Of a DNA stretch of 64,000 nt, positions 21,646-26,893 are shown one piece after another. The stretch spans positions 4,149-68,148 of the forward strand of contig OMYS01000002.1 in assembly GCA_900315305.1 (NCBI GenBank), written 5' to 3'. Both the position numbers and the translations under genes were made by a program. Positions within the stretch are counted from its first letter, which is position 1. Every line of letters starts with the position of its first letter. Source of the stretch: an uncultured Eubacteriales bacterium (GTDB lineage: Bacteria > Bacillota > Clostridia > Lachnospirales > Lachnospiraceae). Below the pieces are notes generated by a model, which worked only from the letters and a program-made list of their open reading frames with translations, ran no database searches and was not told the origin of the DNA.

Positions 21646-23907
21646 ATGAAACTTCACGACGGAGGCGTTTATCTTCTGCACGGCACGGAGCTTGCGGAAG
21701 AGAATCCGATCGGCGCGGCTGAGGCGAAGAAGGGCACGATGGCCTATGGAATCCTGAAGGCCCACAACACGTCGGATTCTATGACGGACCTTAAGATTAA
21801 ATTCGATGCGCTGACTTCCCATGATATCACCTATGTCGGCATTATTCAGACGGCGAGAGCGTCGGGACTTGAGAAGTTCCCGCTGCCATATATCCTGACG
21901 AACTGTCACAATTCGCTGTGCGCAGTCGGCGGAACAATCAATGAGGATGATCACATGTTCGGCCTGACGGCCGCAAAGAAGTACGGCGGCGTCTATGTCC
22001 CGCCGATGCAGGCCGTGATCCATCAGTATGCGCGTGAGATGCTCGCCGGCGGCGGAAAGATGATCCTCGGCTCCGATTCCCACACCAGATACGGTGCGCT
22101 GGGAACCATGGCTATGGGCGAGGGCGGACCGGAGCTCGTCAAGCAGCTGCTGAACCGTACCTATGACATCAAGATGCCGGGCGTTGTCGCTGTCTATCTG
22201 ACAGGCGATGTGCAGCCGGGCGTCGGTCCGCAGGATATCGCGCTCGCGATCATCGGCGCGGTCTTCAAGAACGGCTATGTCAAGAACAAGGTCATGGAGT
22301 TCGTCGGACCGGGCGTGAAGAACCTGTCCATGGATTACCGGATCGGCGTCGATGTCATGACGACGGAGACGACCTGCCTCTCCTCAATCTGGACGACGGA
22401 TGCAAAGACGGAGGAGTACCTCGCGATCCACGGCCGTCCGGAGGACTACAAGGAGCTGGAGCCGGCTGACGTCGCGTACTACGACGGTTGCATCGAGATC
22501 GACCTCGGCACGATCAAGCCGATGATCGCTCTGCCGTATCATCCGAGCATGGCATTTACAATCGATGAGGTAAATGCAGATCCGTACGATTTCCTGAAGG
22601 CGACGGAAGAGCGCGCGAAGGTTTCATTTGGCGATAAGGTCAAGGTGGACCTCGTCTCCAAGATTCATAACGGAAAGATCCAGGTCGACCAGGGCATCAT
22701 TGCAGGCTGCGCGGGCGGTGGCTTCGAGAACATCTGCGACGCCGCGGACATCCTGCGCGGAAAGAGCATCGGCTCCGGCGCGTTCACACTGAATGTCTAC
22801 CCGGCATCCATGCCGATCTTCAAGGAGCTCGTGAAGAACGGCGTCTTCTCTGACCTGATCGAGACAGGCGCAGTCATCAAGACGGCCTTCTGCGGACCGT
22901 GCTTCGGCGCCGGCGACACACCGGCAAACAATGCGTTCTCGATCCGTCACTCGACGCGCAACTTCCCGAACCGCGAGGGCTCGAAGGTCCAGGAGGGTCA
23001 GATTTCCTCCGTCGCGCTGATGGACGCGCGCTCAATCGCAGCGACCGCAGCGAACAAGGGCATTCTGACCTCGGCTCAGGAGTACACGGGCGATTACACG
23101 AAGCCGAAGTATTTCTTCGATTCTCAGATCTATGCGAACCGCGTCTTCGACAGCCACGGCGTCGCGGATCCGGACACAGAGCTTCAGCTCGGCCCGAACA
23201 TCAAGGACTGGCCGAATATGGCGGAGCTTCCGGAGAACCTTCTGCTCAAGGTTGTCTCTGAGATCCATGATCCGGTCACGACAACCGATGAGCTGATTCC
23301 GTCCGGTGAGACATCCTCCTACCGCTCGAACCCGCTCAGACTGGCATCCTTTGCCCTGTCCAGAAAGGACCCGGCTTATGTCGGCCGCGCGAAGGAGGTA
23401 CAGAAGGGTGAGAAGGCAATCGAGGAAGGAAAGGACCCGGTCCAGGCAGTTCCGGAGGTCGGCGCTGTCGCCGAGACAGTCCGCGGTGCATTTGCAGATA
23501 TGGATTTCTCGAACACGGGCATCGGCTCCACGATCTTTGCTGTGAAGCCGGGCGACGGCTCTGCGCGCGAGCAGGCCGCCTCCTGCCAGAAGGTCCTCGG
23601 CGGATGGGCGAATATCGCAAATGAATACGCGACGAAGCGCTATCGCTCGAACCTCATTAACTGGGGCATGCTGCCGTTCCTGTTCGCAGGCGACGACAAG
23701 GAACTTCCGTTCGCAAATGGCGACTGGCTGTTCATTCCGGGCGTGAAGAAGGCTGTCGAGGAGAAGGCGCCGGAAATTTCCGCATACACGGTCAGAGACG
23801 GGAAGCTTGAGAAATTCGCTCTGACGCTCGGTGATCTGACGGATGATGAGCGCGAGATCATCACGGACGGCTGCCTGATCAACTACTACAGAAAGCATCA
23901 GGTATAA
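21646..23907 (+). CDS. Aconitase-family (YbhJ-like) hydratase
   Basis: GSDSHTR, GCAGG and CGPCFG Fe-S ligands, [25 protein letters not shown] swivel domain. Confidence 0.88.
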
Positions 23908-24351
23908 ATGGACAAGTTCATTCTGCTGTTCGGCTTTGATGATGAAAAGGGGCGGGAGCAGGCTTCCGCTCTTGCCTCGAAGGCGAAGATCCTCGATATC
24001 GGGATCCGGGCAGTCGGGCCGGACCGGTACGACGCTCCGCTGTTTTCGCTTACGGATGAGACTCCTGATAATCAGGCTTCATCAAACCATGCAGAAAGTA
24101 TGCACGGCGCGGGAGGCCGGAGAAAGGGCCGCGGGACGCCTGTCCGCGGCTCACTTCCCTGCCGGATGCTGGTCCTCGGCGGGATCGAGGACGCCGATCT
24201 TGATTTTCTCCTTCCGATGATCGGCAGCTGCGGAATTACGCAGAACGACCTCAAGGCAATGCTCACGCCGACAAATGCGGTGTGGACGCCGCGCAGGCTC
24301 TGCACGGAGCTGGCCGGTGAGCACGCGGCCATGTGGAAGGACAGGCGGTAA
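23908..24351 (+). CDS. DUF3783-like protein with low-complexity insertion
   Basis: ILLFGF..., KAMLTPTNAVWTPRRLCTELAGEH; abuts the hydratase stop. Confidence 0.7.
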   Translation: MDKFILLFGFDDEKGREQASALASKAKILDIGIRAVGPDRYDAPLFSLTDETPDNQASSNHAESMHGAGGRRKGRGTPVRGSLPCRMLVLGGIEDADLDFLLPMIGSCGITQNDLKAMLTPTNAVWTPRRLCTELAGEHAAMWKDRR

Positions 24352-24380
24352 TTGTTACAAATCAGGTGCTGAATAATTAC
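24348..24380. repeat. REP/MITE-like element, short copy (F)
   Basis: gtgctgaataattac (24366-24380) is the exact reverse complement of the left end of copy C (44702-44716). Confidence 0.6.
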
Positions 24381-24388
24381 CAAATTAG

Positions 24389-24432
24389 AAAGCCTCTGTC
24401 ATGCAGCTCAGACTGCCTGGCAGAGGCTTTTT
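24389..24432 (+). terminator. Intrinsic terminator of the hydratase operon
   Basis: aaagcctctgtca/tggcagaggcttt stem, inner gcag/ctgc, T-tract. Confidence 0.8.
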
Positions 24433-24560
24433 TATGAGTGTGCTATGTATTTTTACACGAACAAAATTGTCCGAGTCGATCGAATTGTTGAAAAAATATC
24501 AGACAATATAAACAAATCAAGATTGTAGAAAGGAAAACGAAAAATTCTTGTAAAAATGAC

Positions 24561-24589
24561 TTGACAATTGTGTTAAGCGGGGGTATAGT
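24561..24589 (+). promoter_or_regulatory. Near-consensus sigma-A promoter with A-rich UP region
   Basis: TTGACA (24561-66), 17-nt spacer, TATAGT (24584-89); A-tracts upstream. Confidence 0.85.
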
Positions 24590-24595
24590 ACAAGT

Positions 24596-25958
24596 AACAA
24601 AGGAAATGAAGAACAAATTCCTCATTTCCGAAACATCACCTGAAAGAGAAGCTTCAAGAAAAGATTTCGGATGTGGTTAATCCGAAAAGCTCCCAGGACT
24701 AGTTATAAGACGAGAAGGGAGAATCAGAAGGAAAAGCTTCCATCAGGAACCAGCAGAGAAAGGAGGGCGAAGTCCAGTGGATACGTTAGAAGATCCGATC
24801 TACAAAGCTCCCCAATATGATAAAGGCAGAATCGGCAGTTCCCGACAGTGAAAGCCTTTTCTCTGAACGGTATAGTGTATACCAGAAATAATCAGTGAGA
24901 TTATAATTCATAACCGAAAAGGTAAATATCGAGCCGGTTAGTCATATTGTGGTACCTGCTGAAGAAAAACGAATTGTCTCAGCTATCTGACAGAAAGCCA
25001 TGAGTCCAGATGATCCAGGAGATCGAGGTTACAGGCCGACGGTGTTCAGAAGCTGAAAGATATCAGTTCATTTTTCGGAATATCGATGATCGACGTTCAA
25101 GTAATCAACCTGACAGTTATCTTGAGAGGAAGATTTGAGGAAGAGCCGAAGAGGAAATATCAGAAGGAGAAATCCGATGAAGAGAATTCCGAAAAAGCTT
25201 TGAAGAATTGGAATCTGAAGAGGTCCTGGGACAGAAATTCCGATGAGTGATCGGAGGAAGAGAAATCCTGAGGATGGAATCCGAAGAGAAAATCCGAGGA
25301 AGATTCGAGGATGAGAAAATCGGAGGGTGTTATTTCAGAAGATCGATTTTATCGGTCCCGTGAACAATGGAAAGTCAGTACCGGTAGTATTGACGAGTGT
25401 GGTTGCGGAATTGGATGAAAGATTCGAGGAACAATATCCAAAGAATGATCAATCTGAAGAAAGAATCCGAAGAAAAGAATCGAAGTTCATGCTGAGAGCC
25501 GTAAAGAAGAGGAATCAGATGCAGTGTCTGGCGGATGAGGAATCAGGAAACGGTTGAAGTCAGGAAATGATGAATACAAGCGACATCGAAAAAGTGATAT
25601 TAAATTTCTAAAATCTAAGAGATGAGCCGGGAATAAAAATAAACCTTCAGATATAGATTCAGAATCAATGCAGCGGATCCCGTAGTTAGACTCCTTCATA
25701 AGGAGATGCAAAAGGTCAGAGGAATCGGGAAACTTCGAGTACAGTCGCGAAAGCGAATAGTGAAAGAAGGCAGAACAGCCTGAGAAATCTGATATCCACA
25801 AGAAGCAAAGAAACGAGATTTCGAGTACGTGACGAGAATCTTACAAGGCAACATTGTTCAATGAGAAAGGAATTCTTAATTGAATAACGAAGAGAATTAG
25901 GCGGCCGCCGTATTTAGCAGATAAGAATGTTAAGTGCGACGGCCGTCTTCTTTTTTTT
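24596..25958 (+). ncRNA. Candidate large (~1.36 kb) structured non-coding RNA
   Basis: Promoter-to-terminator unit with no credible ORF, strong purine skew, lower GC than its flanks and many local hairpins (see findings). Transcription and RNA function are inferred. Confidence 0.55.
25899..25958 (+). terminator. Long intrinsic terminator closing the candidate ncRNA
   Basis: aggcggccg-c-cgtatttagca / tgttaagtgcg-a-cggccgtct (about 20 bp with G-U pairs), then 8 T at 25951-58. Confidence 0.85.
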
Positions 25959-26083
25959 GTCTAATTCTGGTAAACAACGATATGAAAGTGTATTTGTGGT
26001 TCCGGATCGATCGCGTTAATATGTAGAGGGTGCATGACAGACAGCTGCCCTGCATGAAGAGGATAGAGAGTGGGAGAGGACAT

Positions 26084-26893
26084 ATGGCTGGTTTTGATCC
26101 GAAAAAAGATATTGTATATGAGGACGAGAGCATTCTCGTTGTGAACAAGCCTGCGGGACTGGCGGTCCAGACCCGGCGGGTGACAACCGATGACCTTGAG
26201 AGCGCGCTTCGCCGGTACCTCGGCGGAACGTGCTCTTTGTACGTTCTGCACCGTCTGGACCAGCCAGTCGAGGGCTTGCTTGTTTTTGCGAAGACAAAGA
26301 AGGCCGCTGCATCACTCAGCAGACAGCTGACGGATGGCCGGATGCACAAGGTTTACCGCGCAAGGGTTGACGGGACCATTCCGGCAGAAGAGGGGACGCT
26401 GACAGATTGGCTGATTCACGACGCGAGAAAGAATGTCACGCGAGTCGTGGACGAGAGGCTGGTCCGCGGCGCGAGAAAGAACGTCACACGGGTCGTGGAT
26501 GAGAGGCTGATCCACGACACGGGAAAGAATGTCACGCGGATCGTGGATAAGAATGAAACTCCCGCGTGTGACACTGCGGGAACTGCAGATTATGCGCGCC
26601 GCAGCAAGAAGCCTGCAGGTGGAAGCGGCTCAGCTGTCCGCGGCGCAAAAAAGGCCGTCCTCACATACCGTAAGATCAGCGCTGATGAGGTGGAGATTGA
26701 GCTTCAGACGGGACGGCCGCACCAGATTCGGGCCCAGCTTGCGCACGCGGGCATGCCGATCCGCGGGGATCAGAAATACGGGCACGGCATGAACAAGTCG
26801 AAGCTGTATCTGAGCGCGTGCCGCCTCTCATTTGTCCATCCGGAGACAGGAGAGAAGAAAACCTTCGCGATCGAGCCATTTGAGCGCGGCTGA
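26084..26893 (+). CDS. RluA family pseudouridine synthase with repeat insertion
   Basis: VNKPAGL, HRLDQPVEG catalytic Asp, LQTGRPHQIRAQL, IRGDQKYG, LSACRLSFVHP. Confidence 0.9.
   Translation: MAGFDPKKDIVYEDESILVVNKPAGLAVQTRRVTTDDLESALRRYLGGTCSLYVLHRLDQPVEGLLVFAKTKKAAASLSRQLTDGRMHKVYRARVDGTIPAEEGTLTDWLIHDARKNVTRVVDERLVRGARKNVTRVVDERLIHDTGKNVTRIVDKNETPACDTAGTADYARRSKKPAGGSGSAVRGAKKAVLTYRKISADEVEIELQTGRPHQIRAQLAHAGMPIRGDQKYGHGMNKSKLYLSACRLSFVHPETGEKKTFAIEPFERG
26411..26554 (+). repeat. In-frame 48-bp tandem repeat x3 (16-aa units)
   Basis: LIHDARKNVTRVVDER / LVRGARKNVTRVVDER / LIHDTGKNVTRIVDKN. Confidence 0.9.

Follow-up and report, generated by a model that had tools for sequence, protein, structure and literature searches.

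Background

A transcript of some 1.36 kb that has a promoter and a terminator of its own, and in which no long open reading frame (ORF) can be found, raises the question of what such an RNA does. The unit considered here (24561-25958, forward strand) lies in a stretch of 64,000 nucleotides (nt), hereafter the window, from an uncultured Eubacteriales bacterium of the Lachnospiraceae (GenBank assembly GCA_900315305.1, contig OMYS01000002.1, positions 4,149 to 68,148). A first reading of the bare sequence, hereafter the original prediction, had proposed a large non-coding RNA gene, rich in hairpins and perhaps representing a new class. Our comparisons suggest a single-copy gene for a Lachnospiraceae-specific structured RNA of ~0.5-1.4 kb, with a core of ~350-400 nt that would engage ribosomes at two points; we give this reading a probability of roughly 0.55. 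That the unit belongs to a real, conserved structured RNA family is, on the comparative evidence, close to certain.

Distribution of the RNA family

Homologues in Lachnospiraceae genomes, to which the original prediction had looked, were obtained by DNA search and, across the family, by covariance models. A DNA search of relatives yielded full-length copies in two species at 92-93% identity, which excludes the misassembly that had been raised as a concern. In 22 further genomes of the same genus conservation is confined to islands: promoter-proximal DNA, island 1 (24746-24886), island 2 (25579-25669) and the terminator region. Of 36 genomes from the genus, 24 contain a homologue. Across the family, 400 genera were sampled with R1, a covariance model of the 5' domain, and 33 of them gave a single-copy homologue. 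Because an improved model, R2, matched 3 of 12 family genomes, the prevalence of 8% obtained with R1 is a lower bound. Within the order, R1 matches are confined to the family save for one weak match at E = 0.009; R2 found no match in ~385 genomes from other families of the class and one copy in the window's own genome. In named genomes, a pattern scan identified the carriers as 'Lachnospiraceae bacterium' metagenome-assembled genomes from rumen and gut, one from the human gut among them. The genomes G035 and G740 each consist of one contig and are probably isolates. Ten of the 28 matches of that scan were rejected as chance occurrences in unrelated DNA, including a conserved alphaproteobacterial coding stretch read as Mfd. 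With the probe used, no phage link was found: five exact 17-mer matches in IMG/VR were attributed to chance, none being accompanied by a model match, and the one locus inspected is coding DNA.

The conserved portion of the RNA amounts to ~350-400 nt, while whole homologues range from ~500 nt to ~1.4 kb. Since the two conserved islands lie 154-837 nt apart among homologues, the purine-rich middle of the window copy is best regarded as a lineage-specific expansion. A length of 1.36 kb, by which the original prediction set the unit apart from known classes, is that of one copy inflated by lineage-specific inserts and does not characterise the class.

Architecture of the conserved core

The elements of the fold in the window copy are as follows.

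24810-24952, forward strand: helix P2, arms 24810-24820 (CCCCAAUAUGA) and 24942-24952 (UCAUAUUGUGG), inverted repeat I14
24825-24960, forward strand: pseudoknot PK, GGCAG 24825-24829 (P2/P3 internal loop) with CUGCU 24956-24960, just 3' of P2
24830-24939, forward strand: helix P3, arms 24830-24836 and 24933-24939
24854-24923, forward strand: helix P4, arms 24854-24861 and 24916-24923, enclosing P5 (24869-24883) and P6 (24888-24904)
24838-25634, forward strand: long-range helix LR1, GUUCCCGAC 24838-24846 (P3/P4 junction) with GCCGGGAAU 25626-25634 (island 2), a second pseudoknot
24926-25600, forward strand: probable long-range helix LR2, AUAUC 24926-24930 (P4/P3 junction) with GAUAU 25596-25600 (start of island 2)
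25596-25634, forward strand: elements of island 2, namely the LR2 3' arm, UUUCUAA 25605-25611, P7 25613-25616/25620-25623, GA and the LR1 3' arm

The folding energy of single sequences does not stand out (z = -1.3 and -1.4); the evidence for structure is comparative and not thermodynamic. In a model-based alignment of 28 sequences, 88% of the cells of P2, PK, P3 and P4 combined are paired, as against 36-45% in slid controls, and compensatory change is seen in 22 of the 30 pairs. None of 500 shuffles reached the observed values, a count that overstates significance because the sequences are phylogenetically non-independent. RNAalifold, applied to MAFFT alignments, recovered P2 alone or the terminator alone; the other helices were spotted by eye in the alignments and then tested by pair counting. 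P2 is paired in 96% of cells, with compensatory change in 7 of 10 pairs. The pseudoknot joins GGCAG to CUGCC, 3-6 nt after the P2 3' arm, in the alignment (97% paired, 3 of 5 pairs compensatory), and is rebuilt in other genera as GGUAA/UUACC, GGUAU/AUACC or GAUGG/CCAUC. All seven pairs of P3 show compensatory change (83% paired), as do 5 of the 8 pairs of P4, for which the figure of just 77% paired reflects slipped registers in the alignment. Neither the sequence nor the length of P5 and P6 is constant. G-U pairs exist on the forward strand only, consistent with the orientation of promoter and terminator.

Beyond this nested domain, LR1 ties the P3/P4 junction to island 2, whose aligned partner sequence GYCGGGAAU pairs with the 5' arm. 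Pairing reaches 89% of cells here, slid controls giving 25-49%, and 7 of the 9 pairs show compensatory change; distant genera carry perfect variants of 8-9 bp, for example GUUUCCUGC/GCAGGAAAC and AUUCUUGC/GCAAGAAU. LR2 is a probable long-range helix: complementarity within species exceeds that of cross-species pairings in 5000 of 5000 permutations, and its variants include AAAUC/GAUUU, UAUCC/GGAUA, AUAUG/CAUAU and UUAUAG/CUAUAA. LR1 and LR2 each have their 5' arm within P3 and the partner of that arm outside P2, which makes both of them further pseudoknots. The conserved pieces should accordingly fold together into a single core, with the variable segments looped out of it. Island 2 itself has a cross-genus consensus of ACUUUCUAAGUAAG, an insert of 4 to >150 nt, CUUACGA and GCAGGGAAU; the P7 stem covaries and GNRA loops are frequent.

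Covariation, by which the original prediction proposed that its hairpins be judged, thus redraws the fold. Compensatory changes back P2, PK, P3, P4, LR1, the probable LR2 and the terminator stem. Among the hairpins said to recur throughout the unit, those at 24869-24883 (P5) and 24602-24629 match features in relatives and the rest do not, the group at 25239-25441 falling in the lineage-specific expansion. The proposed cagagaaa/tttctctg closing helix was rejected, being confined to the three closest species and in competition with the covarying P4.

Two predicted ribosome-loading sites

Two short ORFs, each with a Shine-Dalgarno-like (SD) element, were identified, the first starting just 5' of the conserved core and the second ending at the terminator.

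24761-24767, forward strand: SD1, Shine-Dalgarno-like AGGAGGG, 10 nt before the ORF1 start
24777-24851, forward strand: ORF1, GUG start, 24 sense codons, UGA stop, crossing the 5' arms of P2, PK, P3 and LR1
25863-25871, forward strand: SD2, GAGAAAGGA
25880-25900, forward strand: ORF2, UUG AAU AAC GAA GAG AAU UAG
25900-25958, forward strand: intrinsic terminator, arms 25900-25910 and 25937-25947 followed by a U-rich tract that closes with T8 at 25958

Nearly all 48 sequences share an aligned GGAGG-like element, with the start codon of ORF1 6-10 nt downstream. The start column holds ATG (25), TTG (14) or GTG (8) and no other codon. From this start to the CAA that opens P2 the distance is 24, 27, 30, 33 or 36 nt, a multiple of three in 26 of the 29 genera outside the window's genus, and frame-breaking indels in ORF1 are nearly confined to cases already cut by an early stop. 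The modal ORF1 has 15 codons and ends with UAG or UAA in the P3 5' arm, two nt before LR1. Its peptide is not conserved, the residues following the covariation of paired bases (Q to L, Y to C, E to K, V or D). We conclude that the initiation site, as judged from these alignments, is under selection and that the peptide is not. The site is likely to be functional, and passage of ribosomes into the core is probably under selection as well.

The second site is defined by an SD-like purine stretch 7-12 nt before the pattern UUG AAU AAY GAA NNN NNN stop. An ORF2 of 5-7 codons is present in all loci of the same-genus type and in 19 of 30 others, with TAA, TAG and TGA all in use, and in these loci the distance from the end of the stop codon to the start of the stem of the terminator is -3 to +2 nt. 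In the window, the UAG ends and that stem begins with one and the same base, G25900; at locus L019 a variant ORF2 of 12 codons still ends exactly at the stem. The stem covaries, with compensatory change in 9 of 13 pairs, and its foot includes paired bases from the stop codon. Unless ORF2 is translated, it is difficult to account for three stop codons that replace one another at a fixed point of the structure. Conservation extends to the ORF2 peptide, M-N-N/K-E-x-x, but equally to the nucleotides that encode it.

A short, SD-bearing ORF that overlaps an intrinsic terminator is the arrangement expected of an attenuator, and ORF2 has this geometry. Work on Escherichia coli shows that a translating ribosome represses almost completely those terminators that lie a few nt or less from a stop codon (PMC4824070). 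An alternative antiterminator helix was sought with RNAalifold on 14 3' domains, which returned the terminator alone. We lean towards a functional coupling between ORF2 and the terminator.

Two observations concern the surroundings of ORF2. The motif AAUUGAAUA, which contains the ORF2 start (25878-25888 in the window), occurs two to three times per RNA in several lineages, its other sites being after island 2 in L044, L050, L057 and L072 and in the P5 region of L015, L023, L029, L035 and L047; conservation of this motif may reflect more than coding. In addition, a CCUC-like or UUACCU stretch complementary to SD2 (GAGGUA) lies 25-35 nt before it in L004 (~1915-1945), L011, L012, L008 and L029. 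This stretch, seen by eye only, could mask the ribosome-binding site of ORF2.

Comparison with known RNA classes

At the gathering threshold, Rfam 15 gave no match in the 64-kb window or in 10 shorter homologues. Permissive searches (E up to 10 for the window, up to 1 for four compact homologues) returned sub-threshold matches to small unrelated families only, these being microRNA, small nucleolar RNA, small regulatory RNA and leader models. OLE, ROOL, GOLLD, raiA, HEARO and RNase P are rejected for want of a covariance-model match, and literature searches, which were not exhaustive, found no earlier description of the family. The suspicion that the unrecognised unit might be a new class is accordingly a reasonable one. 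ARAGORN found no tRNA or transfer-messenger RNA (tmRNA) in 24300-26100, and no Rfam tmRNA model matched. A tmRNA is likewise rejected, as the RNA has no tRNA-like domain and both of its ORFs have an SD and a start codon of their own.

Multiple helices with compensatory changes across species, as described above, are what one expects of a large structured non-coding RNA. The present RNA resembles OLE (RF01071), ROOL (RF03087), GOLLD (RF01998) and the raiA motif in its several hundred nt, its many covarying helices and its pseudoknots, and also in being a stand-alone gene limited to particular Firmicutes lineages; ROOL, too, was first seen in rumen data. It differs from these classes in lacking similarity to their models and, with the probe used, a phage link, and in having large expansion segments. 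It further differs in its two conserved predicted ribosome-binding sites, whose mini-ORFs are tied to the fold and to the terminator; we know of no integrated ribosome-binding sites with mini-ORFs in those classes.

Ribosome-mediated attenuators, such as E. coli pyrBI and pyrE and the ermC, vmlR, hflXr and yxjB leaders in Firmicutes, share with the present RNA a short SD-bearing ORF at or overlapping an intrinsic terminator, and a ribosome at the end of that ORF would block the 5' arm of the hairpin on the principle documented in PMC4824070. Attenuator leaders, however, measure 100-300 nt and serve one regulated gene, whereas here ~400-1300 nt of structured RNA precede ORF2, the downstream gene varies, and no alternative antiterminator helix was identified. 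The placement of LR1, P2, PK and P3 relative to ORF1 recalls the Min Jou interaction of MS2, in which an arm of a long-range helix inside or beside an upstream ORF is opened by the ribosome. In MS2 the distal arm masks the replicase start; in this RNA, which is cellular and not of phage origin, it lies 90-250 nt before ORF2. Dual-function small RNAs (RNAIII/hld, SR1/SR1P, SgrS/SgrT) are also structured regulatory RNAs that contain a small ORF, translation being predicted in the present case, but they have a conserved functional peptide and known pairing seeds, whereas the ORF1 peptide is not conserved. With tmRNA the RNA shares pseudoknots flanking a short internal ORF that ends in a stop codon; tmRNA lacks an SD and start of its own and possesses the tRNA-like domain that is absent here.

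The transcription unit and its variable segments

Outside the core, the following features complete the unit.

24561-24589, forward strand: sigma-A-type promoter, -35 TTGACA 24561-24566, 17-nt spacer, -10 TATAGT 24584-24589
24602-24629, forward strand: 5'-terminal hairpin, 12-bp stem and 4-nt loop, within the variable leader 24596-24760
24995-25580, forward strand: expansion, degenerate purine-rich GAnGAGAAAUCCGA-like repeats at ~25130-25560, repeat families D1-D7

The window promoter matches the consensus at 11 of 12 positions, with a predicted start near 24596, and at all 48 homologous loci the top promoter match combines an exact TTGACA, a 17-nt spacer and a good -10. Since the distance from promoter to SD1 varies from 22 to 406 nt across these loci, the 5' leader lies outside the conserved core, which begins at SD1, and is dispensable. 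Upstream, a hairpin followed by a T-run (~24391-24435) after the DUF3783 gene was read directly from the sequence; the terminator scan missed it, its loop being long. The longest ORF of the unit is 76 amino acids on the forward strand (25327-25557) and 104 on the reverse, and a Pfam search of both gave no match, on which basis a coding region or pseudogene was rejected. G+C content is 0.35-0.45 inside the unit, where G and A are in strong excess, as compared with 0.55-0.62 in the flanks.

Much of what was first said of the locus is borne out by these data. The insulated promoter-to-terminator unit is intact, with promoter, upstream terminator and closing terminator all found in the sequence; stand-alone transcription agrees with a consensus promoter kept in 48 of 48 loci; and the sharp shift in composition is real, a recount of 25261-25320 giving the same 44 purines and 25 G+C. 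The claim that no credible ORF exists holds for long frames, but it overlooked the two short conserved ones, and the description of the unit as strictly non-coding must give way, given that two putative ribosome-loading mini-ORFs rank among its best-conserved features.

The variable segments of the window genome contribute ~700 extra nt of purine-rich repeats. Only the two species with 92-93% identity have sequence that aligns to the expansion; in other lineages this site is occupied by unrelated repeats or by ~150-250 nt. As the window expansion is GGA-rich, a CsrB/RsmZ-type sponge for CsrA was considered. It was rejected as a property of the family, the GGA motifs not being kept at this site in other lineages, which hold unrelated A-rich or AT-rich repeats or a short segment.

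Repeats at the expansion site take several forms: GAnGAGAAAUCCGA-like units in the window (25130-25560), AT-rich units of ~45 nt in L053 (~1810-1990, oriented coordinates) and AAGAAAAAYCU units in L023 (~1300-1440, oriented coordinates). The window unit resembles the 3' half of a hairpin that recurs in the 5' leader of relatives (L004, L010, L019, L029, L038, L044, L050 and L052), with a covarying stem and the conserved A-rich loop GACGAGAAA. A second recurrent hairpin, again with a covarying stem and with the A-rich loop GUAAAGAAA, is found just after PK in L005, L023, L028, L029, L035 and L038, as well as in L044, L050, L053, L058 and L059. Both loops are candidates that could bind a protein or make a tertiary contact.

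Genomic neighbourhood

In the window the unit is flanked upstream by genes for an aconitase and a DUF3783 protein, and downstream by genes for an RluA-family pseudouridine synthase (rlu, 26084-26893) and a V-ATPase subunit. Not only in the window but also in most of the genus and in 10 of 28 other genera, the RNA is followed by rlu in the same orientation, with at least one more case in G471. A profile of RNA-adjacent copies separates this orthologue (>200 bits) from paralogues (<=150 bits). The orthologue occurs in most genomes without the RNA and is missing from four that carry it, and in 12 RNA-negative genomes, searched with filters off, nothing like the RNA was found upstream of rlu. In two loci an extended -10 promoter lies between the terminator and the rlu start (TGTGGTACAAT in L023, 1625-1660, and TGTGTTACAAT in L047, 7470-7500; oriented coordinates), which weakens the case for a purely cis-regulatory role. 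An obligate partnership of RNA and rlu is rejected, as each occurs without the other. Their linkage looks like ancestral synteny, possibly exploited for read-through, and not like an obligate pairing of leader and gene.

The order aconitase-(DUF3783)-RNA-rlu recurs in several genera (21646-26893 in the window; L044, L056, L059, L061, L068, L073 and L074). In 7 of 30 other genera the gene next upstream encodes an aconitase, with 74-86% identity to the L044 copy; aconitases from bacteria can double as RNA-binding proteins. On the downstream side, the near-invariant UUUCUAA(A/G) of island 2 (25605-25611 in the window) resembles the psi-U-x-x-A-A-A loop consensus of E. coli RluA substrates, and by this analogy it might be a candidate substrate of the neighbouring synthase. 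The RluA-family protein of the window contains a threefold tandem repeat of ~15 residues (..RKNVTRVVDERL.. x3, 26414-26550) that its orthologues lack and that adds ~40 amino acids to an otherwise ~230-residue protein. A six-frame match reveals one in-frame stop (TGA or TAA) in the rlu orthologues G149:C16:5363-6034, G319:C36:47568-48272, G717:C131:10071-10574, G183 and G438. These could be pseudogenes, sequencing errors or instances of recoding.

Discussion

If both sites load ribosomes, their positions suggest how the RNA might work. A ribosome on ORF1 would melt P2, PK and P3 and, on terminating there, would also cover the LR1 5' arm, so that translation and folding of the core should exclude each other. 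A ribosome finishing ORF2 would occupy the 5' arm of the terminator; translation of ORF2 would in this way reduce termination or, once the RNA is complete, open its 3' hairpin. The RNA would then be a translation-coupled riboregulator that sets read-through into the downstream gene (often rlu), or its own stability, 3'-end integrity and availability, or both. That control of read-through in cis is the main output is a tentative proposal, for which the odds are below even. More speculative still is a new class of 'ribosome-gated' RNA, in which translation of the embedded ORF1 must unfold the core and the stop-in-stem ORF2 gates the 3' terminator or hairpin. Such an RNA would read the translational state of the cell, or a ribosome-directed signal, and convert it into read-through, RNA stability or the release of a partner. 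We know of no described RNA with a mechanism of this kind.

Several observations weigh against a core that engages ribosomes at two points. ORF1 has just 2-5 codons in nine genera and is frame-shifted in one group. Its openness is not special, since 16 of 29 genera have a +1 frame free of stops over 14 codons or more, compared with 20 of 29 for ORF1 itself, and the apparent conservation of QYESG in ORF1 follows from the base pairing of P2 and PK. The LR1 partners of nine distant genera were found by a complementarity search and so carry a selection bias, though they lie in the same conserved context. Nor is there the constant single downstream gene that an attenuator would be expected to have: PseudoU_synth_2 proteins are encoded there in 10 of the 28 other genera and TPR proteins in three, the rest being diverse. 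Finally, Firmicutes are thought to couple transcription and translation poorly, which makes co-transcriptional gating of a terminator by a six-codon ORF kinetically demanding.

One competing explanation is an RNA that acts purely in trans or as a scaffold, of the OLE/ROOL/GOLLD/raiA kind, whose core binds a protein or forms a particle. The SD and start-like elements would then be structural, or would recruit 30S or 70S ribosomes against 5' exonuclease in the manner of a STAB-SD stabiliser. The complex, multiply pseudoknotted core, the strong conserved promoter of a single-copy gene with its own terminator, the inconstant downstream gene and the unconserved ORF1 peptide, cut short in nine genera, all suit such an RNA. 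Without translation of the ORFs, though, it is hard to see why three stop codons should interchange at the exact foot of the terminator, or why indels in the ORF1 spacer should come in multiples of three, and we consider this explanation unlikely, if the most serious of the competitors. A giant 5' leader or attenuator dedicated to rlu, with ORF2 as a leader peptide that senses translation capacity or a ribosome-targeting compound, would account for the attenuator geometry of ORF2 and for the position of rlu, directly downstream on the same strand in many genera while the upstream neighbours are more variable. It is at odds with the ~60% of other genera in which another gene follows, with the separate occurrence of the RNA and the rlu orthologue among genomes, with the absence of anything RNA-like before rlu in RNA-negative genomes and with the rlu promoters of L023 and L047; we regard it as improbable.

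The conserved SD and start of both ORFs, the maintained ORF1 frame and the conserved M-N-N/K-E terminus of ORF2 could also be read as the marks of an mRNA for two micro-peptides (~15-24 and 6 amino acids), its structure tuning translation or stability. Yet ORF1 residues change with the covarying bases, the RNA core is intact in the nine genera where ORF1 shrinks to 2-5 codons, and ~300 nt of conserved, covarying RNA lie outside both ORFs, which together make this reading very improbable. The unremarkable folding energy and the low-complexity, repetitive middle of the unit would suit a gene in decay, a spacer between genes or an artefact of assembly, with hairpins that arose by chance. Compensatory conservation over dozens of genera, with promoter and terminator conserved, the presence of the whole unit in two other species and internal ORFs that match nothing in Pfam leave that explanation with hardly any credibility. 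The reading we prefer therefore remains a structured RNA whose core is entered by ribosomes at ORF1 and whose 3' end is met by them at ORF2.

Conclusions

The RNA is best classed as a new family, in which traits of the ornate large RNAs are joined to those of ribosome-mediated attenuators. Its covariance models and 48-sequence alignment can seed an Rfam entry. The Lachnospiraceae are among the most abundant bacteria of gut and rumen, and very few of their regulatory RNAs are known; the family adds to these a large RNA, new and well defined, that lends itself to work on structure and function, with a strongly covarying core and two or three long-range contacts of the pseudoknot type. It also illustrates that a bacterial RNA can be inflated threefold by expansion segments while its core is left untouched. 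Its unusual trait is that predicted ribosome-loading sites are built into the architecture of the RNA itself.

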